The translations under genes were made by a program, and so were the position numbers. Source: Fidelibacterota bacterium (GTDB lineage Bacteria; Fidelibacterota; Marinisomatia; Marinisomatales; S15-B10). Taken from it: DNA of 18,621 nucleotides. Below are positions 7,483 to 17,337 of this stretch, piece by piece. Location: contig PBTS01000007.1 in NCBI GenBank assembly GCA_002729175.1, positions 1 to 18,621 of the forward strand, written 5' to 3'. How positions within the stretch are numbered: position 1 is the first letter of the stretch; each line of letters opens with the position of its first letter. Under the pieces are notes generated by a model, which made no database searches, was not told the origin of the DNA, and saw nothing but the letters and a program-made list of their open reading frames with translations.

Positions 7483-10400
7483 ATGAAAGTCATCAAATTA
7501 ATTGCTTTTCACATTTTGATCGCCGGTTTCCTGGCGGCTCAGAACGGATCAATATCCGGAACTGTTCTCGATGCCTCTACCAATGACCCACTCATTGCTG
7601 CCAACGTAACTGTTACGGGAGAAGCACTTACCGAAACTACAGGCAGTGCCACCGATGCTGGTGGCCAATATACCGTTACCAATCTGCCGTCCGGTCAGTA
7701 TACCCTTAAGGTGAACTATATTGGATACGAGAAACAAGAGGAGACTGTTACACTCGGTCCGGGGCAATCGTTAACAATTGATTTTAAACTGGCTCCTTCG
7801 GCTATTGAATACGACACATATGTGGTCACCGCCTCCCGCCGCAGGGAGCGGATCGAAGATGCTCCGGCCGCCATCAGCATCATCACGCAAAAATCTATTC
7901 GACGAGAGAGTAACACAAATCTTGGCGATTATCTAAAATCAGTGAAAGGGGTTGATTTCACCCAGTCTGGCATAGACAGTTACAACCTGAGCGCCCGGGG
8001 GTTTAACAGTTCTTTCAGTTCACGCCTATTGACCCTTACGGATGGAAGGATGGCGAATGTTCCGTCCCTCCGGCTTGTCGCCTATAATGTTATCCCTGTC
8101 TCCTTCGAAGATGTGCATCAGATCGAGGTAGTGCTGGGCCCCTCTTCTGCCCTCTACGGACCTAACGCCCATAGCGGTGTTCTTAATATTGTCACGCGCG
8201 CACCTAAAGATTCTAAGGGGACTACTTTCAATATACAGACGGGTTTGATTGCCCAGGAAAACGGAAAGCCGTTGAAAAAAATGACGTTTCGTCACGCTTC
8301 TGCCTGGAAAGATTTTGGGTTCAAAGTGTCTAGTGTGGCAATGAACGCCTATGACTGGGAGCATTACAATGATGACGAATTCGAAGGACACGATCCTGCC
8401 TTTCTCGGCAGACCCCATCTCACCCGTGACGGTATAGATAACGGTGGATCCAGTCCTGAACTTTTTAGCCCCACCTTCACGGAAGATATGCTCAAGGAAC
8501 TGACCGTTGGTGAAGTACCCAACAACGGTATTGATGACAACGGCAACGGTTTTATCGATGAAACCATGGATATGGTGGGCTACGCCTACGGCGACGGTAA
8601 AATAAACTGGTTTCCTTTCGGCACAGAACCCTATTCGCCCAAGATTACGCAGGAGATGGTTACCCAGGCTGCTAGTGACCCGTTCAACCGGCTCTGTGTG
8701 GATGAGGGAAACATCAGTTCATTCAGCGGTAACTGCCCCGGCGTTGTGCTCTGGGGCGTTACTTCAGACGCAATCGGGAAACAGTTCAAAGATGGTCTGG
8801 ATAACAACGGTAACGGCGCCATTGATGAAGGTATTGATACCGGTATTGATGGAAGTGACGAAGCATTTTTTGATGGTGTAGACAATGATGGGGACGGACT
8901 CATAGATGAGGATGATGAATCAATAGCCAACTTTTGGCTAAACCGCTTCGGCAGCTATGCACCGGGTGACACTACAAAAGCGGACAGATACGGTTTCGGT
9001 TTTGGTGACTACGAATATGATGATGACGGCAATATACTATTCGACACAAATCGAAACGGCGTCTTTGGAGACCCGGAAGATTTCAAGCTGACAAGAGGGG
9101 AATTGAGTCGTTGGATAAAGGATGCCAATGGAGACGGTTATGATGACTTCCCTGATTTCAATGTGGAAAACTACCGCTATGATCTTCGTTTTGATTATGA
9201 CCCAAATAGCGATATAAATCTCAGCCTTTCCCACGGATTGGCAAGAGCAAAAAACATCAACATCACCGGTATCGCCCGCTATCTGGCCGATGGCTGGGTC
9301 TATCAATACTACCAGAGTCGACTAAGGTACAAAAACTTCTTTTGGCAAACTTATCTGAACACCAGCATGTCCGGGAAATACAACCCTAAATATCCACTGG
9401 CTCACTCCCCTACCCGGAACCTTGCTACCGGTGGGACCATCTACGACCGATCCAAAAAGTTCAGCTCCCAGTTTCAGCATGCAACGGAATTAATGAATGG
9501 TGATTTCAGGTTTGTCTGGGGCGCCGATTATTTTCTCACCATGCCGAACACCCGGGGATCCATACTTTCTGACGATCAGTTGGTGAACGGCCGGGACGAT
9601 AATGGTGATGGTGAGGCCGGCTCCCCTATTTCCTGGGCTGACTATAATGACAATCTCCAACACGATAAAGGTGAGATATATACCAGGTGGGGTACCGATA
9701 ACGGTAAGCAGGATGGTGCGGTGGGACCAACAGATAACGTTAAAGGGGCTGTTGCGGACGGGATCGACAATGATGGTGACGGACTTATTGATGAAGGAAT
9801 CGATGAACAGGCTGAGGACAACCGCTATGTTGTTAATGAATTCGGTGCCTATTATCAGATCAATTGGAAACTCAATCCAAAATATGAGCTGATCCATGCC
9901 ACCCGTTTTGACGTTCACGACCGCCTAACGGACTTTATTGAATTCAACAATTACGACTACAGTTATAGCCCCACAAACTGGAAGTTCAACTTTGGAAAGA
10001 GAGACGGGCTTCAGATCTCGCCAAAGATCGGCCTGGTGTATCGTCCCCGGGAGAACCAGAACTTCAGGCTCACATGGGCCAAAGCTTTCAATACCCCTTC
10101 CAACCAAGCCCTGTTTCTGGATATTTTTGTAACCCGAGTAGCCACTTACAAGGTTTTTGCCCGGGGTGCTCATGAAGGGTACAACTACCCCAGAAGCGCC
10201 GACGGTGACATTTACTGGAAAAGCCCTTACGACGCATTTAATGTGATTGAATTTGATTCAACTACACACGTTTTCTTCTTCCCATCTACAGATCCCAAAA
10301 ATAGAGGATTCTTTAAGGACAATATTCCAGATCAGGGCGGTATTTATCCCGAAACGGTCCACACGCTGGAACTGGGTTACAAAGGCCGTATTACCCCCAC

Positions 10401-11094
10401 CATCTATGGAACCATGGATATCTTCAGGAGCAATTACAGTTCATTCGTTAGTGCTATCACTTTCATCACCCCCATTGTACTGAACAAGGCCGTGTTAACC
10501 ACCGACTATAACGGGGACGGGATAGTCAACGAAGATCCTGACGACATCCTGGATGAAGAAGATCTGGACGAATCATTTGACGTCTGGCTCACACATCTTG
10601 AAGGTATCTCATCCATGGATACCACTGCAGGATTCAATCCGCCTGTTGTTGTGGGTTACCTCAATTACGGAAATGTGAATATGGGTGGAATAGATATGAG
10701 TCTCTCATTTTTTCTCAACCGGTCGTGGTCCATGGATGTTAATTACTCTTATCTCAGCATGAGTGACTTCATCAACCCTATCACCAATGCAAAAGATCCA
10801 ATTAACGCTCCCAAGCATAAGGGAAGTCTCAAGTTGCAGTACGCTCCTCCGGACTCGAAGCTCGGCGGTAGTTTCAATCTTCGTTACGTGGACGCCTTCC
10901 CTTGGCAATCAGGTGTTTATTTCGGCACAATAGGTCCTTACACTATTTTTGATATCCACGCGCGGTATCAACTTATAGACAAAGCGGCCGTACTTTTGAG
11001 TGTCAGCAACCTTTTCAACGATTATCATATTGAGATTCAAGGCGGCCCGGCCATCGGTCGTCTGGTGATGCTCCGCCTACAGGCAGAGTTGTAA
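7483..11094 (+). CDS. TonB-dependent outer-membrane receptor with N-terminal carboxypeptidase-regulatory-like domain and large Asp/Gly-rich inserts
   Basis: Signal peptide, GSISGTVLDASTNDPLIAANV (CarboxypepD_reg-like), VVTASRR..IEDAPAAISII, plug motifs ARGFNSSFSSRLLTLTDGR and IEVVLGPSSALYGPNAHSGVLNIVT, barrel features SPKIGLVY, PETVHTLELGYK, VSNLFN. Confidence 0.93.
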   Translation: MKVIKLIAFHILIAGFLAAQNGSISGTVLDASTNDPLIAANVTVTGEALTETTGSATDAGGQYTVTNLPSGQYTLKVNYIGYEKQEETVTLGPGQSLTIDFKLAPSAIEYDTYVVTASRRRERIEDAPAAISIITQKSIRRESNTNLGDYLKSVKGVDFTQSGIDSYNLSARGFNSSFSSRLLTLTDGRMANVPSLRLVAYNVIPVSFEDVHQIEVVLGPSSALYGPNAHSGVLNIVTRAPKDSKGTTFNIQTGLIAQENGKPLKKMTFRHASAWKDFGFKVSSVAMNAYDWEHYNDDEFEGHDPAFLGRPHLTRDGIDNGGSSPELFSPTFTEDMLKELTVGEVPNNGIDDNGNGFIDETMDMVGYAYGDGKINWFPFGTEPYSPKITQEMVTQAASDPFNRLCVDEGNISSFSGNCPGVVLWGVTSDAIGKQFKDGLDNNGNGAIDEGIDTGIDGSDEAFFDGVDNDGDGLIDEDDESIANFWLNRFGSYAPGDTTKADRYGFGFGDYEYDDDGNILFDTNRNGVFGDPEDFKLTRGELSRWIKDANGDGYDDFPDFNVENYRYDLRFDYDPNSDINLSLSHGLARAKNINITGIARYLADGWVYQYYQSRLRYKNFFWQTYLNTSMSGKYNPKYPLAHSPTRNLATGGTIYDRSKKFSSQFQHATELMNGDFRFVWGADYFLTMPNTRGSILSDDQLVNGRDDNGDGEAGSPISWADYNDNLQHDKGEIYTRWGTDNGKQDGAVGPTDNVKGAVADGIDNDGDGLIDEGIDEQAEDNRYVVNEFGAYYQINWKLNPKYELIHATRFDVHDRLTDFIEFNNYDYSYSPTNWKFNFGKRDGLQISPKIGLVYRPRENQNFRLTWAKAFNTPSNQALFLDIFVTRVATYKVFARGAHEGYNYPRSADGDIYWKSPYDAFNVIEFDSTTHVFFFPSTDPKNRGFFKDNIPDQGGIYPETVHTLELGYKGRITPTIYGTMDIFRSNYSSFVSAITFITPIVLNKAVLTTDYNGDGIVNEDPDDILDEEDLDESFDVWLTHLEGISSMDTTAGFNPPVVVGYLNYGNVNMGGIDMSLSFFLNRSWSMDVNYSYLSMSDFINPITNAKDPINAPKHKGSLKLQYAPPDSKLGGSFNLRYVDAFPWQSGVYFGTIGPYTIFDIHARYQLIDKAAVLLSVSNLFNDYHIEIQGGPAIGRLVMLRLQAEL

Positions 11095-11152: not shown

Positions 11153-12049
11153 ATGAGCGGCCATTTCACTTCTCAAAAAGCTCTCAAGACAGCGGCTCTG
11201 CTCCTGAGCATTACATTCCTTGCTGAGCTCCTGGGTGGCATTGTATTCGGCAGCCTCAGCCTCATTTCAGATTCGTTCCACGTCATTGCCGATCTCGGTT
11301 CTATTCTTATTGCTTCTTTTGCCCTTTCTGTAGCTCACAAACGTCACCCGACCCAACAAATGGCCTTCGGCTACCACCGGCTGGAGGTGATGAGTGCCCT
11401 GTTTAACGGCATTGTTCTCAGCATCATTTCAGCAGTGATTTTTCTGGAGGCGTGGGAACGGTTTCGAAATCCCGGCGAGATCCAAGCGGGAGGTGCTCTG
11501 GTAATCGCTGTTATTGGACTTGTGGTAAACCTTATTGTCATCCGCTTCTTTCACCATGCTCCAGACCGCCACCATGACGTAAACATCAGGAGCGCATACC
11601 TCCACATCATGGGGGACATCCTTGCTTCTGTTTCTGTGGTTGTGGGGATCACGGCAATTAAGCTTTTTGATATGCCCATCATCGATCCAGTTGTAGCCGC
11701 TTTTGTGGCATTGCTTTTGCTCATTGGGGCTACCAGAGTTCTTTATTCAAGTGCGGAAATTTTACTCCACAAATCACCCCAGGATATTGACCGTGTCCGG
11801 CTTCGGGTACTCCAGATTGACGGCGTAAAAGACTTGTTAGATGTAAGACTTTGGCAAGTCTGTTCTCATTTGACCGTGGGAACGGCACATGTGGTAGTGT
11901 CAGTGGATTCCCTGGAAGCTACCGGGCCCATCAAACAGAACATCCGATCCATCATTCAGGAAGAGTTCGATGTGAGAGATATTACGCTGGAATGTGAGAC
12001 GGAAAAGGGCTCTGAAGAACACTCACACCGCTTTGAACACCAGCATTAG
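11153..12049 (+). CDS. Cation diffusion facilitator (CzcD/ZitB-like Zn/Co/Cd exporter)
   Basis: CDF signature SLSLISDSFHVIAD (TM2 HxxxD), FGYHRLEVMSALFNG, NIRSAYLHIMGD (TM5 HxxxD), a His-rich loop HHAPDRHHD and a His-rich tail. Confidence 0.93.
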   Translation: MSGHFTSQKALKTAALLLSITFLAELLGGIVFGSLSLISDSFHVIADLGSILIASFALSVAHKRHPTQQMAFGYHRLEVMSALFNGIVLSIISAVIFLEAWERFRNPGEIQAGGALVIAVIGLVVNLIVIRFFHHAPDRHHDVNIRSAYLHIMGDILASVSVVVGITAIKLFDMPIIDPVVAAFVALLLLIGATRVLYSSAEILLHKSPQDIDRVRLRVLQIDGVKDLLDVRLWQVCSHLTVGTAHVVVSVDSLEATGPIKQNIRSIIQEEFDVRDITLECETEKGSEEHSHRFEHQH

Positions 12050-12864
12050 CCTGCACCTTTTGGCCTAACCAGCCAAGCTATCACCAACATAAAACCAAAA
12101 GTTACCACAATGGCAGCCCCTGTTGGAATATCAAGTAGGAGCGATGCTAGCATGCCCAGAACACTTCCGACAAGTCCAAAGATCCATCCAAATATCAGCC
12201 TGGATGATACGCCTTCCACAAAAAGAAGTGCCCCTATAGCTGGTACGATAAGAAAAGAAAACACTAGAAGAACACCAGCGATTTTTACAGAACTGGTTAC
12301 CACAAATCCGAAGGTAATATAGAAAAGGAAATCCCACAGCCTTCTGTTTACATTTGATTTGCCATTGTTTTGGCTATCTGATACTGCAAGAAACTCTGTC
12401 CGGAACCTCCAATGAAAACCGCCGATGACTGCGTAGAGCATGAAAGTTTGGAACACTTCCTTGGGTGACACAAAAAGTATGGATCCCACCAAAAGGTGGT
12501 TGAGATGTTCGGCTCCTTCGGGTGACTTGCTGAAAAGCAAGATCATTACAGCAGCGGAGACGACGTAAGTGATCCCGATGATAGCTTCTTGGGGCACACG
12601 TTCATTCACAGAACGTGTATAAGAAAACAGAAGGGCACCAAGAAATGTGAATCCCAATGCCAAAAAATACATAATGCCTTCTGCATGGTCGAATCCTAAA
12701 AGTAAACCTACAGCCATCCCCAGCGCTGCTACCTGTGCTAAAGCCAAATCAACGAAAATAACACCGCGCGTCACAACGTGAAGACCAAGATAGACATGTA
12801 TACCTGTAAGCACAAACGCCGCCATAAGTGGCCAAATAATTATGTCAAAATACTCCAGAATCAT
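12046..12864 (-). CDS. Metal ABC-type permease (ZnuB/MntB, ABC-3 family)
   Basis: Multi-TM protein with GLHVVTRGVIFVDLALAQ, QEAIIGITY, LLVGSILFV, SVKIAGVLLVFSFLIVPA and DIPTGAAIV. ATGA overlap with the binding-protein gene. Confidence 0.9.
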   Translation of the reverse strand: MILEYFDIIIWPLMAAFVLTGIHVYLGLHVVTRGVIFVDLALAQVAALGMAVGLLLGFDHAEGIMYFLALGFTFLGALLFSYTRSVNERVPQEAIIGITYVVSAAVMILLFSKSPEGAEHLNHLLVGSILFVSPKEVFQTFMLYAVIGGFHWRFRTEFLAVSDSQNNGKSNVNRRLWDFLFYITFGFVVTSSVKIAGVLLVFSFLIVPAIGALLFVEGVSSRLIFGWIFGLVGSVLGMLASLLLDIPTGAAIVVTFGFMLVIAWLVRPKGAG

Positions 12865-13739
12865 TCCAGCGTCTTCTTAAGTATTTCGAGGTTGTAATGG
12901 ATCATCTCAATATAGGAGTTAGCCAGTGATCTGGCCCCAACAGATTGTGCCATTTCGATAATTTCAATACCTGTTTTTTCAACCAGGAATTTAGGTGCTT
13001 TGTCGCTGAAATACGGCTCCATGGCGATTACGTTGATCTGGTGTTCCCTAATTAAAGATATGAGTGTTTCGATGTGACTCGGCGTCGGCATGATTCCCGG
13101 TTTCGGCTCAACAAACTGAACAATATCTAGTCCGAACCGGTTAGCGAAATAGGGCCAAGTATTATGATAAAAAATCAGTTTCATTCCGCGTAATGAAGCA
13201 TACTTTTCGCGCCAAGATTGTAGATTTGAATCAATGGTCTTTGAAAACTTCCTGTGGTTTTCCCAAAAAATATTGGCCCCTGCTGGATCAGCCTCGGACA
13301 GCACCTCTGCAATAGTAGAACCTATAATCTTACCGTTCTCTGGGTCTAACCAGTAGTGCGGATTCCCAAAGCGATGGATATCGCCCATGCTAGCATCAAT
13401 CTTTCTAGTGGGAATTTCAAGCCTTGGAATATTTGCTGAACAATCCACAATTATCAGTTTTCGGTTTCGAGAGCCATCTATAATCTGCTGTGCCCATCGA
13501 TCTAGTTCCATCCCCACCTTAAGGTAAATATCAGCCCGCTTGACTTTTATCATGTATGACGGCAGGACTTCTACATAGTGCGGATCCTGCGTCCCCCGGG
13601 CAATACTCACCACCTTCACTCGTTCACCGCCAATAGTTGATGCAATGTCCGCTAAATCAGTAGTGGAAGTTACCACAGATACTTTGGCGGATAGGCTGTT
13701 GAGGACAAGGGCCACTATCAGCATAATTCTATTCGTCAT
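12861..13739 (-). CDS. Metal-binding periplasmic protein (ZnuA/TroA/cluster A-I family), 292 aa
   Basis: The likely start is ATG 13739 (MTNRIMLIVALVLNSLSA|KVSVVTS, signal peptide), 1 nt after the upstream stop. Motifs QDPHY, GDIHRFGNPHYWLDP, YHNTWPYF, EPKPGIMPTPSH. Confidence 0.92.
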   Translation of the reverse strand: MTNRIMLIVALVLNSLSAKVSVVTSTTDLADIASTIGGERVKVVSIARGTQDPHYVEVLPSYMIKVKRADIYLKVGMELDRWAQQIIDGSRNRKLIIVDCSANIPRLEIPTRKIDASMGDIHRFGNPHYWLDPENGKIIGSTIAEVLSEADPAGANIFWENHRKFSKTIDSNLQSWREKYASLRGMKLIFYHNTWPYFANRFGLDIVQFVEPKPGIMPTPSHIETLISLIREHQINVIAMEPYFSDKAPKFLVEKTGIEIIEMAQSVGARSLANSYIEMIHYNLEILKKTLE

Positions 13740-13740
13740 C

Positions 13741-14838
13741 TTAAAACCTGTGGGGCTTGTGGGGGCCAAGTGACCAGATGAGCTGCCCCACCACAGAAAA
13801 TACAGGGTCTTCATCGCCGTGATATTCCTGGTGCAGGCGGACACGTAAGACAGACGATTCTTCGACGGGGCTAAAGCCAACAAAAAGACCGAACGAATTG
13901 TAAGGCGCTTCATCCAGTTCACTGGCGTAGTCCACGATAAACCCGGCATTCCACACCTTGTTGATTTGCATATTGAGCCAGCCGTAAGCAATGGTGGTGG
14001 TTCCTTCATGTTCTTCTGAAAGGTGGTCTTCGTGGTATTTCTCTTCTTCGTGTTCCTCCTTTCCACTATTCTGCATGACCTCCCCCTGAACAGTAAATGA
14101 ACGATACTTGTCCGGCCGCCATTTGAACTTCATGTCCACACCTGAAACCGTCCCCTCTGACTCATTGATGGCGCGGTAGTGATTCAGGCCAGTTTCAATA
14201 TGGGAGATATCATTCAGCTCGAAAAAGTTGGAAAAACGGAATGCCACGACGCCAGTGTTTCCATTATCTTCCTCCTTTTTCTCTGACCGTTTTTCGTCGT
14301 CGTACAACTCCCTGTTTCCCTCATTCTTATCATGGGAGTGTTCGTCGTGTCCGTGTCCCCCCATGCCATTCTGCATGGCGCTTAAGGATAGTTTGCTATA
14401 CCAAGGCAGAGGCGCCAGCGTACTCAATTCCGCTCCCGGTGAAGACCACATCTCCTCACCAAGCAGTGCCTGTACCGGCAGCGATGCTAAGATATAGTGA
14501 TAGGTGTGGGCATGCTCCCTGTTAATCTTCCCGAAATCGGGTCTGAACTTGCCGGCCCTAAGTCCCAGGTTCAGCGGCAATCCTCGCTCCACGGTGAGGA
14601 ACGCTTCCTCCACATCCACGGCCCCCTCGCTGTCGTGTATATGAAGAAACAAATCTGCTCGAGCAAAAGGATTAACGTAACCCTGAGCGGCTATTTCCAA
14701 TCCTGAGGTGGAAAGCGCAAGTGATTCTTTGTCTCCTTTGGCAAGAAGATCCCCAAGGAAGCTAATATCTGGATTAACAGTTGTTTGTGAAAAAGATAGT
14801 GACCTAATTACAGTCAGAAGAACAAATGTTCTTCGCAT
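13741..14838 (-). CDS. His/Glu-rich outer-membrane beta-barrel protein, probable metal (Zn) uptake channel
   Basis: Signal peptide, then NPDISFLGD, EIAAQGYVNPFARAD, VEEAFLT, LRAGKFRPDFGKINREHAH, His/Glu loops GHGHDEHSHD and EEHEEEKYHEDHLSEEHE, and C-terminal QLIWSLGPHKPHRF (terminal Phe). SD AGGGGA lies 8 nt upstream. Confidence 0.8.
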   Translation of the reverse strand: MRRTFVLLTVIRSLSFSQTTVNPDISFLGDLLAKGDKESLALSTSGLEIAAQGYVNPFARADLFLHIHDSEGAVDVEEAFLTVERGLPLNLGLRAGKFRPDFGKINREHAHTYHYILASLPVQALLGEEMWSSPGAELSTLAPLPWYSKLSLSAMQNGMGGHGHDEHSHDKNEGNRELYDDEKRSEKKEEDNGNTGVVAFRFSNFFELNDISHIETGLNHYRAINESEGTVSGVDMKFKWRPDKYRSFTVQGEVMQNSGKEEHEEEKYHEDHLSEEHEGTTTIAYGWLNMQINKVWNAGFIVDYASELDEAPYNSFGLFVGFSPVEESSVLRVRLHQEYHGDEDPVFSVVGQLIWSLGPHKPHRF

Positions 14839-14845
14839 TAAGCTG

Positions 14846-14943
14846 ATCCCCTATTCTAAGGTTAGCCACCCCCGAGAATGGAACCTCATCCCACTCCGTC
14901 AAAGATGGTCAGATTACGACAGCAAGATTAGCTTAGAGGGGAT
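14846..14943 (-). promoter_or_regulatory. Anti-Shine-Dalgarno pairing between the last codons of the leader ORF and the RBS of the barrel gene
   Basis: mRNA AUCCCCU-CUAAG (14943-14932, codons A-S-P-L-S) is complementary to CUUAG-AAU-AGGGGAU (14860-14846). This gives 12 bp with a 3-nt bulge and covers the SD. Confidence 0.65.
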
Positions 14944-15278
14944 GCCCTTGAGGGCGGGAGCGGAGAGAGGATTTCTGAGGAAAAAACTTGTTTGGGGAAA
15001 ATATGTGCTCTGTCTGCATTCTCGGAGAAAAGTCCGCTGCCAATTTCAATAGCTGTGAAATCACGAATTCGCGCGCGACAACAGTCATGGCGGAGATTAG
15101 TGTTATTGTGTTCGGAGGTGTCGCAATCTACCTTACATAAACCGAACTCTGAAAAAGAGAACCAGTTGTGACTGGCCAGGTCGTGAGTGACATCAACCAA
15201 CGGGGTAATAGCGACCCACATTGCCATCAGAATGGCGACAAAAGTTCTTTCAGGGCTTCTTCCTGTTAGCAGACTCAT
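14928..15278 (-). CDS. DUF2946-like Cys/His-rich leader protein with C-terminal RAPP-like motif (116 aa)
   Basis: ATG 15278 lies 7 nt after the DUF3467 stop. MSLLTGRSPERTFVAILMAMWVAITPLVDVTH (TM/signal), HDLASH, CKVDC, HNNTNLRHDCC, ending SPLPPSRASPLS*. It sits directly upstream of metal-uptake genes. Confidence 0.75.
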   Translation of the reverse strand: MSLLTGRSPERTFVAILMAMWVAITPLVDVTHDLASHNWFSFSEFGLCKVDCDTSEHNNTNLRHDCCRARIRDFTAIEIGSGLFSENADRAHIFPKQVFSSEILSPLPPSRASPLS

Positions 15279-15285
15279 AAAATAG

Positions 15286-15603
15286 TTAATTCGGCAATGA
15301 TCCTTCAGGTGGCTTGACTCCAAATGGCTCAAAAGATTCATTCTTCGGCACAGAAATCTCGCCGTATTGCTTTTCATACTTTTCAATGTTATCCGACAGA
15401 GCCCTTTGAAAACTTTTAGCATGAGATGGGGCCATGATGATTCTTGAATTCACTTTCGCTTTCGGCATCCCCGGTAGGAGCCGGGTGAAATCCATGACAA
15501 ACTCAGCTGGTGAATGGGTAATAACCACAAAATTGGCGTAATCCCCACTACCGACTTTCTCATCAAGCTCAATGTTGATCTGCTGTTCTTTCTTTTTATT
15601 CAC
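15286..15603 (-). CDS. DUF3467 domain protein
   Basis: QINIELDEKVGSGDYANFVVITHSPAEFVMDF..LLPGMPKAKVNSRIIMAPSHAK...ALSDNIEKYEKQYGEI matches the DUF3467 pattern. GTG start overlaps the upstream TGA (GTGA). Confidence 0.9.
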   Translation of the reverse strand: MNKKKEQQINIELDEKVGSGDYANFVVITHSPAEFVMDFTRLLPGMPKAKVNSRIIMAPSHAKSFQRALSDNIEKYEKQYGEISVPKNESFEPFGVKPPEGSLPN

Positions 15604-16043
15604 GATTTTTTCTTTCTCCCTCTTCTTGACTTTTTCTTTTTCTCCAGAAGTGGATTTTTAGCCTCTTCTTTATTACGGAGATTAAATTCTTCCCAATCTT
15701 CTTCAAGTCCTTCCCAAACATCTATCTCTTGTGTGGTGTCTTTTTCTACGGTTTGTACCTCTTCTTGGAAGAGAGAAAAAGTGTCTTTTTTCTTTTCAAA
15801 ATCCTGCGGGTCCACCTCCTCCTGATCGGTGGGATCGAGACGTTCAATCTCATCCTTGTAGATTTTCATATCAAAAAAGTCTATATCCTTCACAATACCG
15901 TTGGCCACAAGGTATTCAATGAAGTCTAGGTATCTCGCATTCTGTAGATCGGTCTTGCAGCTAGCACAAACCAAAGACTCTTTAAGATCCTCTTCTTTAA
16001 GGGGAGTCTTGCATTCTGGGCAGATCAAACCTTCTGATAGCAT
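15600..16043 (-). CDS. Hypothetical zinc-ribbon protein (CxxC...CxxC), acidic middle, basic tail; 147 aa
   Basis: The likely start is ATG 16043, with SD GAGG upstream. MLSEGLICPECKTPLKEEDLKESLVCASCKT; C-terminus KKKKSRRGRKKKS. Confidence 0.8.
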   Translation of the reverse strand: MLSEGLICPECKTPLKEEDLKESLVCASCKTDLQNARYLDFIEYLVANGIVKDIDFFDMKIYKDEIERLDPTDQEEVDPQDFEKKKDTFSLFQEEVQTVEKDTTQEIDVWEGLEEDWEEFNLRNKEEAKNPLLEKKKKSRRGRKKKS

Positions 16044-16079
16044 TATATTTCCTCGTTTTATCCTCAGTGAGAGGGCGAT

Positions 16080-16108
16080 AATATAAACGGCGACCCACCC
16101 CTCGTCAA
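16080..16108 (-). promoter_or_regulatory. Near-consensus sigma70 promoter for the Zn-ribbon/DUF3467/metal-uptake operon
   Basis: Minus strand TTGACG-17 nt-TATATT in the 82-nt intergenic gap, 36 nt upstream of ATG 16043. Confidence 0.75.
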
Positions 16109-16125
16109 CAGGTATTTCAACATTT

Positions 16126-17337
16126 TTATTTCCAATGTTTTTCCCACAGTTGAAGAAAAAGGCTCTCCTCTGCAGCTGAGAACGATTGATCTCGTCTTCC
16201 CTTTGCCGCTTTTGCTGCCTCAATAAACTTCTGGAAATCGTATTTCTGCAATTCCCTATTCATGACCCATGAGAAAGGCGGAATCTCCTTCGGCGGAAAC
16301 CCGGTAACCACCACATTACAGGCCGGTCCCACTGTGGTGCCTGTATTAAACTGGGTCCCGATGGCTGATTTTGCATGATCCCCCATAAAGAGCCCTACAA
16401 ACAGGCTTTTCGTGTCGACCTGTTTTCCGTCCACTATAACTTTGACAGAAGAATAATTGTTTTTTAAATCACTGTTATTGGTTCCAGCGCCAAGATTAAC
16501 CCATTCCCCCACGTAGGAATGTCCCAGAAAACCGTCGTGCTGTTTATTACTCCAGCTCTGGAAAATGGTTTCAGCAACTTCTCCCCCAACCTTACAACCG
16601 GGACCCATGGTTGTTTCTCCGAAAATCTTTGCTCCCGCTTTAATGAGAGAACCATTTCCTATAAAAAGAGGCCCTTCCAGGTAAGCACCGGGTTGAACGG
16701 TCACTTTTTCGCTAATGATAACCGGTCCCGATTCACCATCCAGAATGGCTCCTGCCTTCACTCTGGCACCCTCAGCCACATAAATGTTATCTTGATTCAG
16801 TAGATGGGTGCCATCATCAATATCACCTTTCACTTCTCCCATGGGAAAGTGGGCAGCATCCGCCTTAATAGCATGGCCATTTTCATTGATACAGTCCCAA
16901 AGGTAAATGATTGATTTAAGATCATTTTTCTCTTCCCCAATATCTTCAGGGCAAGATGTATTTAGAGGACCTCCTGCCTCCAACCACTTTTGACCCATTT
17001 CAGAGGAGAAATGTGCTCCAACAAAAGCACCGTCTGATGTGAATATTCCCTCTTTCGATTCCAGAAGATTCAGGGACGGTTCAGTCCAAAAGACAGTACT
17101 GTTAAGCCAGAGGCCGTCTTCCACAGTCTCAGGGTTCACTATCAAGCCAAATCGTTCTTTGGTAACAGTTTCCTGTTCCTCCCTAACAAAGAGGGAGATG
17201 GAATCATCAGGACGAAGCCTATTCAAGCGCTCCAGGAATGTGAAAGCACCGCAGCGAAGATCAAACAAGGGCCGTGTCAGGGCAATAGGGGCAAGCTTCT
17301 CAGCCGAAGCCCGGGTTTCGTAAAGATAGATATTCAT
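16126..17337 (-). CDS. GlmU-like putative sugar nucleotidyltransferase/acetyltransferase (NTP_transf_4 + left-handed beta-helix)
   Basis: N-terminal LAPIALTRPLFDLRCGAFT, hexapeptide repeats (GPVII, EGPLFIG, TMGPGCKVGGEV), and SNKQHDGFLGHSYVGEWVNLGAGTNNSDLKNNY. Confidence 0.88.
   Translation of the reverse strand: MNIYLYETRASAEKLAPIALTRPLFDLRCGAFTFLERLNRLRPDDSISLFVREEQETVTKERFGLIVNPETVEDGLWLNSTVFWTEPSLNLLESKEGIFTSDGAFVGAHFSSEMGQKWLEAGGPLNTSCPEDIGEEKNDLKSIIYLWDCINENGHAIKADAAHFPMGEVKGDIDDGTHLLNQDNIYVAEGARVKAGAILDGESGPVIISEKVTVQPGAYLEGPLFIGNGSLIKAGAKIFGETTMGPGCKVGGEVAETIFQSWSNKQHDGFLGHSYVGEWVNLGAGTNNSDLKNNYSSVKVIVDGKQVDTKSLFVGLFMGDHAKSAIGTQFNTGTTVGPACNVVVTGFPPKEIPPFSWVMNRELQKYDFQKFIEAAKAAKGRRDQSFSAAEESLFLQLWEKHWK

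Follow-up and report, generated by a model that had tools for sequence, protein, structure and literature searches.

Zinc uptake is textbook territory of the Zur repressor, and metal-sensing arrest peptides have, to our knowledge, been demonstrated so far for copper only, in CruR and CutF. CruR (Bp2923) of Bordetella pertussis, the prototype of the DUF2946 family (PF11162; PMC9426467), comprises an export signal and a Cys motif that is followed, at a spacing of 45 residues, by a RAPP motif three residues from the end (PMC9426467, PMC12992588), and its arrest has been demonstrated by toeprinting (PMC12992588). The copper genes that accompany DUF2946 in the available text of PMC12992588 are YcnI, CopC, PCuAC and PepSY; the same text describes RAPP and RGPP upstream ORFs in front of TonB-dependent receptor genes and metal genes, with Cys/His-bearing ones in Streptomyces lividans, and does not contain the word ‘zinc’. 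In CutF of Rhodobacter capsulatus, also a DUF2946 protein, the exported nascent chain senses copper and stalls at a C-terminal Pro-rich motif, which opens a stem-loop that otherwise conceals the ribosome-binding site of the following gene (bioRxiv 10.1101/2025.02.05.636593). The account of CruR and CutF given in the original prediction agrees with these papers.

Here we analyse an 18,621-nucleotide stretch of DNA from a Fidelibacterota bacterium (hereafter the window), in which a small ORF precedes genes for a porin-like protein, a ZnuA-like binding protein and a ZnuB-like permease. Reasoning by analogy, we think it rather probable that this ORF is a metal-sensing, probably zinc-sensing, arrest-peptide leader working like CruR. 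Measured against the available descriptions of CruR, it would likewise be a small exported protein at the head of a metal-uptake operon, separated by a long spacer from the gene that follows, and the first Cys of its third Cys motif lies 44 residues from the Arg of the C-terminal motif, close to the 45 residues of CruR and the 45 or 46 found in 55 of 78 relatives (37 and 18, respectively). The expected logic would also be shared, in that a stall keeps the uptake genes on and metal releases the stall. Unlike CruR, the family falls below the PF11162 cut-off and carries a His run and, as an addition, the invariant module CxxxCxxxxH; in the window protein CC stands where CxxC would be, and RASP replaces RAPP. 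The targets here are porin–ZnuA–ZnuB or lipoprotein–TonB receptor genes of zinc type, whereas those of the CruR family are the copper-linked TonB receptor/PepSY, YcnI and CopC, and the host belongs to an uncultured marine phylum rather than to the Proteobacteria.

The likeness to CutF, as far as that source describes it, lies in sister operons of a lipoprotein type, where the end of the leader is predicted to pair with the next ribosome-binding site, an arrangement for which the window has no folding support. The sign of control would also differ, given that copper induces CutF stalling and turns a detoxifying oxidase on, and an uptake operon needs the opposite. With ApdA, ApdP, ApcA and SecM, as described in the available sources, the ORF shares an invariant Arg, a Pro that would occupy the A site and a motif close to the C-terminal end of a small protein that is secreted or membrane-bound, whereas the members of that class monitor Sec/YidC activity or are uncharacterised.

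The leader gene and its family

The features named in the original prediction, a 116-residue ORF with a hydrophobic segment, a Cys/His cluster, the ending PLPPSRASPLS and an 89-nt gap to the next gene, were all found in the sequence (Table 1), on the minus strand, which had been left unstated. RASP is followed by a Leu and a Ser codon and then the stop. The stop of the DUF3467 gene lies 7 nt 5′ of the leader ATG, so that by position the leader is not the first gene of its transcription unit. There is no space for a promoter and operator between the two genes, and control specific to the uptake genes must therefore act after transcription initiation or from a promoter within the DUF3467 gene. 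The same neighbour, at times with a small Trm112-like gene between, is also present in related loci L003, L004, L007, L008, L016 and L019.

Table 1 Features of the leader and its operon, in window coordinates.
Feature	Position	Strand	Basis or remark
ABC-3 permease (ZnuB-like), last gene of the operon	12046-12864	(-)	PF00950, E 9e-32
Cluster A-I metal-binding protein (ZnuA family)	12861-13739	(-)	PF01297, E 5e-55
His-rich outer-membrane porin-like protein, 365 aa	13741-14838	(-)	Foldseek
89-nt spacer, leader stop to porin ATG (14838)	14839-14927	(-)	three G-rich stretches face the C-rich leader end
Shine-Dalgarno-like AGGGGAT, 7 nt before porin ATG	14846-14852	(-)	complement of ATCCCCT
Leader ORF	14928-15278	(-)	116 codons and stop; ATG at 15278, TAA 14928-14930
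C-terminal motif P108-P-S-R111-A-S-P114	14937-14957	(-)	RASP at 14937-14948
Spacer residues 68-107	14958-15077	(-)	length kept, sequence not; no conserved columns
His/Cys cluster H32, H37, C48-x3-C52-x4-H57, H64, C66-C67	15078-15185	(-)	alignments
N-terminal hydrophobic segment TFVAILMAMWVAITPLV, residues 12-28	15195-15245	(-)	translation; preceded by Arg7 and Arg11
Upstream DUF3467 gene	15286-15603	(-)	PF11950, E 6.5e-28

A longer leader frame reaching ATG 15422 was rejected: it overlaps the DUF3467 gene and finds no support in relatives from other families, in which roughly 10 residues precede the hydrophobic segment. Conservation at the protein level across families ruled out that the ORF is spurious or read in the wrong frame. 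A relaxed form of the C-terminal motif ends 7 of the 3955 ATG-initiated ORFs of at least 60 aa in the six frames of the window's genome, and among those seven only the leader has the other features of the family. The ORF is open, conserved at the protein level across order and phylum and far beyond chance; it is a real, conserved gene. Contigs from the RNA libraries of three studies cover the leader, the spacer and the start of the porin gene, with DNA carry-over as a possible source; being assembled contigs, they are uninformative on RNA ends, strand and level, and uncovered parts carry no meaning. Recurring contig ends at 14765/14794 and 15286/15315 were considered as transcript ends and rejected, as they overlap by about 30 nt and look like branch points of the assembly graph.

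Searches at E<=1e-3 detect the family in 34 of 233 genomes at the level of the order and in 102 of 401 at that of the phylum, in a frame of about 107–117 aa, and forms 133 representative clusters at 50% identity (E<=1e-3), nearly all of 100–118 aa. A protein homologue search returned only eight close relatives, all without names or Pfam domains, and NCBIfam holds no family for the leader. No relative was found in a related-locus search with the window protein alone, and a narrower alignment gave nine named loci. A check for conserved Cys/His residues and the Arg motif, proposed in the original prediction, found C48, C52 and H57 invariant in alignments of 25 and of 98 sequences, together with R111 and P114; H32 is nearly invariant among the 25. 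In the window the cluster reads H32-DLAS-H37, C48-KVD-C52 with H57, and H64-D-C66-C67. CxxxCxxxxH is present in 102 of 132 representatives, and its second Cys stands 56–61 residues from the Arg (57 residues in 40 of 78 core relatives and 58 in a further 20; 58 in the window). At the place of the third Cys motif, 52 of these 78 have CxxC, and the remaining 26 have a lone Cys.

At the C-terminus, R-x-[P/S]-P lies 1–6 residues from the end in 111 of the 132 representatives, as RPPP in 48, RAPP in 41, RGPP in 12, RSPP in 8 and RASP in 2; the motif is missing or cut off in 21. The architecture that had been predicted (a TM or export segment, a Cys/His motif, a spacer of fixed length and an R-x-P-P-type motif near the stop) is conserved family-wide.

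The hydrophobic segment is probably a signal anchor or export signal, in line with the signal peptide or Nin-Cout transmembrane segment of DUF2946 proteins. AlphaFold2 models the leader as a single confident helix over residues 9–38 (pLDDT 93–95 over 11–30), whose membrane orientation is inferred. Past the TM helix there is no confident fold: pLDDT is 48–63 in residues 68–107, and the model is too uncertain to tell if the Cys and His side chains come together in a single site. With few invariant residues, a variable spacer of fixed length and no fold beyond the helix, the conservation pattern suits a nascent-chain device better than a folded protein.

The same pattern bears on the reading that the leader acts as a mature, membrane-anchored, periplasm-facing metal-binding accessory protein, a chaperone or sensor, whose R-x-P-P is an interaction or sorting motif and causes no regulatory arrest. 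A conserved His/Cys cluster behind an N-terminal anchor, constant co-location with uptake genes and a window motif, RASP, that is not a proven arrest core would all suit such a protein. We nevertheless regard it as unlikely: the roughly 40 residues between cluster and tail keep their length with neither conserved sequence nor predicted structure, the tail motif is drawn from the known arrest-core set and sits 1–6 residues from the stop, and in the lipoprotein-type operons the last codons double as a predicted anti-Shine-Dalgarno sequence, which is sensible only for an RNA or translation device.

The arrest-leader reading was originally framed as a divergent DUF2946 member. The proposed HMM search spoke against this in its plain form: PF11162 (gathering score 23.7 bits) did not match the window protein at E<=0.1, any of 25 family members at E<=10 or any of the 132 representatives above cut-off, and was not found in the window's genome. 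What stands is a suggested remote tie, drawn from sequence comparisons: three of the 132 representatives match below threshold at 18.1–22.8 bits, 4 of 12 peripheral sequences match at E<=1, and the nearest named ESM Atlas clusters (scores 0.96 and 0.95; 18 of 30 matches) carry PF11162, a label held by only 12% and 36% of their members. The core family also aligned to a peripheral DUF2946-like set with 98.9% probability in hhalign, a link that is not independent since the set was retrieved with the family's own profile. The idea that CxxxC replaces the CxxC of DUF2946 did not hold up; CxxxCxxxxH is an extra module and the family's invariant motif, and the equivalent of CxxC is C66-C67. At the position of RAPP, about three residues from the end in DUF2946, the window has RASP two residues from the end.

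The uptake operon and its metal

The ATG of the ZnuA-like gene lies 1 nt past the porin stop, and a CDF exporter gene adjoins the operon. The porin has no Pfam family (nor has any of 16 relatives) and none in NCBIfam; its AlphaFold2 model (mean pLDDT 74.7) retrieved OprP, OprO, Omp32, OmpT and PorB in Foldseek at E ~1e-9 and TM 0.50–0.58. A porin gene directly follows the leader in 20 of 41 junctions, and in 15 of the 16 such operons scanned the second downstream gene is ZnuA. In operons of the lipoprotein type, where the lipoproteins likewise have no Pfam family (0 of 16 examined), the second downstream gene is a TonB receptor in 15 of 15. The leader family is tied to these two operon types, porin–ZnuA and His-rich lipoprotein–TonB receptor, both of zinc-type uptake, which bears out, for window and family alike, the expectation of a leader before a zinc-type uptake operon.

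The closest solved relatives of the ZnuA-like protein, MntA, YfeA and PsaA, are manganese or iron binders, so zinc is the probable rather than the established metal. Aligned to MntA, the protein has at the positions that we take to be the ligands His (in DPH), His (in NPH), His in place of the MntA Glu and Gln in place of the MntA Asp. Three His residues are the zinc pattern in cluster A-I binding proteins. An arrest leader that responds to Mn, Fe, Co, Ni or Cu, or to the redox or disulfide state of periplasmic Cys, would accord with those solved relatives, with the copper sensing of all characterised relatives of the leader type and with the four to five leader Cys residues, which could form disulfides; RAPP/RGPP upstream ORFs are also described before DsbA and thioredoxin genes in the available text of PMC12992588. 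We judge such a signal quite unlikely, given the third His and the Gln among the ligands, the zinc protein AztC as best NCBIfam match (117.8 bits, under the model cut-off of 350), the His-rich loops of the porin and the His/Asp-rich lipoproteins of the sister operons. Moreover, none of the DUF2946-associated copper genes YcnI, CopC, PCuAC and PepSY was seen in the 41 junctions.

The window's genome carries two genes of the Fur family, so that zinc uptake could be under the control of a conventional Zur; no shared operator, such as a Zur box, was seen when the 130 nt upstream of the 41 leaders were read by eye.

Coupling between leader and downstream genes

The gap between leader and next gene is 43–108 nt in 37 of the 41 junctions and 139–315 nt in the other four. 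In the window, the Shine-Dalgarno-like sequence is perfectly complementary to ATCCCCT (14937–14943), which comprises the last base of the Ala codon and the Ser and Pro codons of RASP. A Watson–Crick run of 7 nt was equalled in 4.8% of 500 shuffles (p 0.048), and in the thermodynamic ensemble base pairs between stall site and Shine-Dalgarno sequence were not favoured (0.81 expected pairs vs 0.68 in shuffles). The fold of 181 nt around the spacer was not unusual (z = -1.09). An Rfam search of the whole window (E<=1) gave nothing in or near the spacer, and a promoter and terminator scan of 14500–16400 gave no site in it and counts not above shuffles; the sole terminator-like hairpin of that scan, at 15160–15177, lies within the leader ORF. 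For the window, the idea that the stall directly exposes the ribosome-binding site found no support in either the spacer fold or the pairing.

The two operon types differ in this respect. Predicted pairing between leader end and Shine-Dalgarno sequence exceeded the shuffle mean in 13 of 18 lipoprotein-type junctions and 4 of 17 of the porin type (where the mean was 1.08 pairs observed vs 1.94 in shuffles), and was matched by at most 2 of 40 shuffles in 10 of 18 and 1 of 17, respectively. The complementary run reached p<=0.05 in 11 of 19 lipoprotein-type and 2 of 18 porin-type junctions. With the stall site forced open, the predicted accessibility of the porin-type ribosome-binding site went from 0.45 to 0.43. 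These models support pairing between leader end and ribosome-binding site for the lipoprotein type and not for the porin type of the window. A four-element attenuator read by eye in porin-type spacers was unsupported by folding under a stall constraint. The excess of C over G expected of a Rho-loading site was present in 28 of 37 junctions and absent from the first 40 nt of the window spacer (C 0.20, G 0.28); a rho gene is present in the window's genome.

Proposed arrest and its significance

We propose that the leader is a regulatory peptide, neither enzyme nor structural protein. Its N-terminal segment would direct the nascent chain to the membrane during synthesis, and by the time the ribosome reaches RASP the H32–C67 cluster, 43–78 residues behind the motif Arg, would be just outside the exit tunnel. 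Peptide-bond formation would then stall while the codon of the third motif residue occupies the P site and that of the Pro occupies the A site, and a ribosome parked two codons before the stop would keep the porin, ZnuA-like and ZnuB-like genes on. One possible route, as with CruR, is to keep Rho from terminating transcription within the 89-nt spacer; another, as with CutF and SecM, is to hold open RNA that otherwise covers the downstream ribosome-binding site. Metal in ample supply, most likely zinc, would bind the His/Cys cluster as it emerges, and the folding or pulling force would release the arrest, so that the ribosome terminates and the operon is turned off. Conservation is established for the set of motifs, for their fixed spacing and for their placement directly ahead of the stop. 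We infer by analogy that the chain stalls and that metal relieves the stall, and likewise which metal acts, in which direction it controls the operon and how leader and porin gene are coupled in the window.

The motif itself calls for caution. In the published mutagenesis, as far as its available text reports, RAPP and RGPP are proven arrest cores and RSPP and RPPP are partly permissive, and arrest was abolished whatever residue replaced the third-position Pro in ApdA, and by every replacement except Gly in ApdP; the string ‘RASP’ does not occur in that text. Compared with R-[A/G]-P-P (or RAGP), the window core keeps the Arg and the final Pro and has Ser in third place, whereas most relatives carry a proven or partly permissive core. 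The original prediction had taken RASP as standing in for RAPP: RASP is indeed present near the end, but stalling at it cannot be assumed, because a third-position Pro-to-Ser change abolished arrest in both ApdA and ApdP. As a whole, that earlier interpretation is partly supported. A whole-genome tally of RASP (3) and RAPP (2) in 532,101 residues holds too few to show avoidance.

The ApdA and ApdP result, and the rarity of RASP (2 of 111 motif-bearing representatives), would fit a history in which RAPP, RGPP and RPPP members are arrest leaders and the PPSRASP sub-clade of the window has lost strong arrest, leaving weak or constitutive expression or a Pro-Pro-Ser stall, but this is very unlikely in our view, since RASP turns up across several sub-clade lineages (the window, L009, L011, L016, P0024 and P0025) with synonymous variation in its Arg (AGG/CGG/CGA) and Ser (UCC/UCG/UCU) codons, the spacing, Cys/His residues and rest of the protein are intact, and SecM, in the available description, works with the small residue Gly at the same position. 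Recurrence, synonymous codons and the intact remainder together point to purifying selection on the exact RASP peptide.

Returning to the arrest leader, a broader proposition is possible, though we lean against it in its full form: in Marinimicrobia-like marine bacteria, zinc import would be governed mainly in translation, by a nascent-peptide sensor family of their own that lies outside DUF2946 and has the extra CxxxCxxxxH knuckle. This family would have two outputs, one for lipoprotein/TonB operons through an anti-Shine-Dalgarno sequence in the last Leu-Leu-stop codons and one for porin/ZnuAB operons through a different coupling, perhaps Rho, and RASP would be a natural arrest core of a new kind, one that places Ser in the P site and would not have been predicted from the ApdA and ApdP mutagenesis.

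Taken alone, the window has a more modest value, adding to the family a further member whose RASP core is atypical. The family as a whole, if linked to zinc, would extend the metal-sensing arrest principle to a second metal and bring it to a globally abundant, uncultured ocean lineage. It would do so with the variants RPPP, RSPP and RASP, overlooked by motif-based surveys; members bearing them would have been missed by the survey of PMC12992588, which, in its available text, searched only exact RAPP and RGPP. The family would also be a natural experiment in which one sensor is wired to two output devices, and its fixed spacer length could serve to gauge where on the exit path the metal site must sit.

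The leader gene and its peptide

Every element that the original prediction had listed for the ORF and its downstream genes is present in the window, on the minus strand. Conservation indicates that the leader ORF is a real gene, with open frames of ~107–117 aa and 22–56% identity recovered from other genera and families by a six-frame search of related genomes. A longer reading frame, opening at an ATG at 15422, overlaps the upstream DUF3467 gene, and relatives in other families, which begin ~10 residues before the hydrophobic segment, give it no support.

Features of the leader locus and neighbouring genes
Feature	Position	Strand	Basis or remark
TonB-dependent receptor, 1203 aa (CarbopepD_reg_2, Plug, barrel)	7483-11094	plus	domain scan
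CDF cation-efflux protein	11153-12049	plus	after the 1203-aa receptor; its last 4 nt overlap the end of the ZnuB-like gene on the other strand
ABC-3 permease	follows ZnuA-family gene	minus	PF00950, E 9e-32
ZnuA-family binding protein	begins one nt after porin stop	minus	PF01297, E 5e-55
His-rich porin-like protein, 365 aa	starts 89 nt after leader stop	minus	ORF and translation
Leader ORF, 116 codons	ATG at 15278, TAA 14928-14930	minus	translation
Two Arg, then 17-residue hydrophobic segment	leader residues 12-28	minus	translation
His pair	H32, H37	minus	translation
Cys/His module	C48-x3-C52-x4-H57	minus	translation
Third Cys region	H64-D-C66-C67	minus	translation
Unremarkable stretch, ~40 residues	between Cys region and tail	minus	translation
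C-terminal tail	P108-P-S-R111-A-S-P114-L-S-stop	minus	translation
DUF3467 gene	15286-15603	minus	directly upstream of leader
207-aa protein, zinc-ribbon-like CxxC...CxxC, Lys/Glu-rich tail	15600-16223	minus	weak Trm112p and zinc-ribbon matches

At E ≤ 1e-3, a profile detected the leader family in 34 of the 233 genomes searched in the order, and a broader profile detected it in 102 of 401 in a sample of the phylum (49 of the 190 high-quality ones). The window's genus contributed three further genomes, none with a significant match at this threshold, and the distribution is therefore patchy. Among 1.84 billion representative proteins, a profile search at E ≤ 1e-3 returned 133 leader clusters, nearly all of 100–118 aa; the nine loci with named relatives include five Candidatus Marinimicrobia/Neomarinimicrobiota MAGs and one Winogradskyella MAG. 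A T9SS sorting domain encoded elsewhere in the window is consistent with this part of the tree; the window's genome is probably Marinimicrobia as well.

C48, C52, H57, R111 and P114 are invariant in both family alignments, one with 25 sequences and the other with 98; in the smaller one H32 is nearly so. Of 132 leader representatives, 102 carry CxxxCxxxxH and 111 end in R-x-[P/S]-P, placed 1–6 residues from the C-terminus (RPPP 48, RAPP 41, RGPP 12, RSPP 8, RASP 2); most of the remaining 21 are truncated or frameshifted records. Spacing was measured in 78 complete core members, in which 56–61 residues separate the second Cys from the Arg (57 in 40, 58 in 20; window 58) and this stretch contains no conserved column. 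At the third Cys motif, 52 of the 78 have CxxC and 26 a lone Cys; the distance from the motif's first Cys to the Arg is 45 or 46 residues in 55 of the 78 (window 44). An AlphaFold2 model built with 98 sequences predicts a confident helix for residues 9–38 only, the rest having pLDDT ~48–63.

The DUF3467 stop codon lies 7 nt before the leader ATG, and related loci share this neighbour; uptake-specific control would therefore need to act once transcription has begun, or else from a promoter within the DUF3467 gene. The one-strand trio of 207-aa protein, DUF3467 gene and leader also recurs in relatives. Assemblies of RNA libraries from three studies contain contigs over 14747/14765–15315 or 14702–15240, with 0–1 differences, that join the leader to the beginning of the porin gene, a weak sign of leader and porin transcription, DNA carry-over being possible. 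In these assemblies the leader occupies its own 539–569-nt contig (0–1 differences), which overlaps flanking contigs by ~30 nt at 14765/14794 and 15286/15315; the flanking porin contigs show 8–11 differences, and the leader seems better conserved than its neighbours among co-occurring strains. Within the leader coding sequence, 15160–15177 (minus strand) can form a terminator-like hairpin followed by a T-run, in a region where the count of such hairpins is not above shuffles.

Operon context and the metal probably sensed

We assembled 41 non-redundant leader/downstream junctions, in which the first gene encodes a porin-like protein in 20, a lipoprotein in 19 and something else in two. These two exceptions are small Cys-rich proteins (locus L035) and an ABC ATPase with an ABC-2/DUF3526 permease (L047), the latter recalling Caulobacter znuGHI, reported there as Zur-regulated ABC-2 genes. 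Second downstream ORFs were scanned in 33 junctions, the other eight having none inside the locus or containing X. In the porin type, to which the window belongs, this ORF is ZnuA (PF01297) in 15 of 16; in the lipoprotein type it is a TonB-dependent receptor in 15 of 15, with CarbopepD_reg_2 in all and Plug in 14.

The 365-aa protein is predicted to be porin-like, its model (mean pLDDT 74.7) matching OprP, OprO, Omp32, OmpT and PorB in Foldseek (E ~1e-9, TM 0.50–0.58). The lipoproteins (156–181 aa) have a Cys-Glu-Asp start, an N-terminal His/Asp run and many invariant His, and always lie between leader and TonB-dependent receptor (L022, L023, L030, L031, L036–L046, L068). A Pfam scan assigned no family to either protein. 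The window's porin/ZnuA/ZnuB operon (12046–14838, minus strand) contains no ABC ATPase (ZnuC) gene, and the permease is its last gene, followed by the convergent CDF gene. The receptor at 7483–11094 carries long Asp/Gly/Asn-rich repeat inserts, and no leader ORF was seen ahead of it.

The metal that the leader would sense is most likely zinc, as judged from the encoded proteins. Among NCBIfam models, the binding protein matches that of AztC, a zinc protein, best (117.8 bits, under that model's cut-off); its nearest solved relatives are Mn/Fe binders. Aligned to MntA, its ligand positions read His, His, His, Gln vs His, His, Glu, Asp in MntA. Three His are typical of zinc-type and His2-Glu-Asp of manganese-type cluster A-I binding proteins. 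The surroundings also lie on the zinc side, with His-rich loops in the porin, His/Asp-rich lipoproteins in sister operons and a CDF exporter convergent to the permease. The window's genome has two Fur-family genes, and thus a Zur may also exist.

Putative arrest motif and probable relation to DUF2946 leaders

The account of CruR and CutF in the original prediction agrees with the papers (PMC9426467, PMC12992588, 10.1101/2025.02.05.636593). In Bordetella CruR, the arrested ribosome keeps Rho from terminating transcription ahead of a TonB receptor gene, and copper lifts this arrest (PMC9426467); later in vitro work demonstrated the arrest and placed the third and fourth motif codons in the P and A sites (PMC12992588). 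In Rhodobacter CutF, stalling at the Pro-rich C-terminus melts a stem-loop covering the next ribosome-binding site (10.1101/2025.02.05.636593). In a 2025 survey, small secretory proteins encoded upstream of TonB receptors and metal genes in many phyla were reported to carry RAPP/RGPP close to their C-terminus (PMC12992588). The word 'zinc' is absent from the main text of both the survey (PMC12992588) and the CruR paper (PMC9426467). A literature search returned no paper joining 'arrest peptide', 'zinc' and 'TonB', and no zinc leader among the DUF2946 matches listed, though supplements of the CruR, CutF and survey papers could list such loci. In a Caulobacter study, DUF2946 genes are among those changed in a zur mutant.

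Proposed membership of DUF2946 did not hold up in the HMM search: PF11162 has no match to the window protein, to any of 25 family members (E ≤ 10) or in the window's genome, and none of the 132 representatives exceeds its cut-off of 23.7 bits. Three peripheral representatives, with CxxC and without CxxxCxxxxH, score 18–22.8 bits; hhalign joins the core family to this DUF2946-like periphery at 98.9% probability, in a non-independent comparison; and in the ESM Atlas the named clusters nearest to the window protein carry DUF2946 (scores 0.96 and 0.95). Because the PF11162 test fails while these three weaker signals point to DUF2946, we file the leader as CruR-like and probably distant kin, short of demonstrated membership.

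Mutagenesis of ApcA, ApdA and ApdP found the motif Arg irreplaceable; at the second position, Gly fully and Ser, Asp and Pro partly replace Ala, and at the third, only Gly is tolerated for Pro, and only in ApdP (PMC12992588). Relatives ending in RPPP, RGPP, RSPP or RAPP are credible stallers, since these second-position residues are fully or partly permitted. For a RASP core we found no experiment in the literature, and the same mutagenesis argues that RASP may fail to arrest, at least when the ribosomes are those of E. coli or B. subtilis. Its conservation argues for a working motif. RASP, RAPP and RSPP interchange between close relatives in the window's sub-clade, PPSRA[S/P]P, where the motif codons vary synonymously (Arg AGG/CGG/CGA, Ser UCC/UCG/UCU), and selection therefore acts on the peptide.

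Possible coupling to the downstream genes

Unmasking of the ribosome-binding site was measured as expected base pairs between the footprint of a stalled ribosome (from −15 to +15 relative to the P site) and the 18 nt that lead up to the following start codon, with 40 footprint shuffles per junction. Lipoprotein-type junctions gave 5.18 expected pairs vs 1.47 in shuffles, 13 of 18 lying over the shuffle mean and 10 of 18 being reached by ≤2 of 40 shuffles, whereas the porin type gave 1.08 vs 1.94 (4 of 17 and 1 of 17). A structure-free measure, the longest complementary run, agrees, with p ≤ 0.05 for 11 of 19 junctions of the lipoprotein type vs 2 of 18 of the porin type. Among RPPP members, the codons for the closing Leu-Leu and the stop form an anti-Shine-Dalgarno sequence; in L040–L044 and L046 the last two Leu codons and stop (CTCCTTTAA) are an 8–9-nt perfect complement of the next Shine-Dalgarno region, a role that may explain the conserved Leu-Leu after the motif.

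Of the two porin-type junctions with a complementary run at p ≤ 0.05, one is that of the window (p 0.048): ATCCCCT, across the RASP Ser and Pro codons, is the exact complement of AGGGGAT, 7 nt before the porin ATG. Other G-rich spacer stretches compete for ATCCCCT in the fold, expected pairs between footprint and ribosome-binding site are 0.81 vs 0.68 in shuffles, and opening the footprint barely alters predicted accessibility of the site.

Alternatively, Rho control in the manner of CruR could couple the stall to the downstream genes. Rho is encoded in the window's genome, and in 28 of 37 junctions the spacer opens with a C-rich, G-poor part (C 0.214, G 0.125, compared with C 0.142, G 0.162 upstream of leaders), counts that overstate independence as the loci are kin; the window's own spacer is an exception. 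The genome has two separate 419-aa frames with a Rho RNA-binding domain (contigs C36:11698–11916 and C1:13558–13779), one of which may be foreign, the assembly's contamination being rated 7.1%. Almost every spacer of L009–L038 has a stable mid-spacer hairpin (e.g. L022, L023, L025, L029), in some followed by a terminator-like run of U, and porin-type spacers of the VHWDRGPP clade share an 'AATGACA' box before a CCCC/GGGG hairpin.

Of the proposal of a metal-sensing stalling leader divergent from DUF2946, the conserved family, its Cys/His residues, the R-x-[P/S]-P tail and the ZnuA-type operons stand, and the PF11162 match does not. By analogy, the leader would work like CruR, and we lean towards reading it as a metal-sensing, probably zinc-sensing, arrest-peptide leader of that type.
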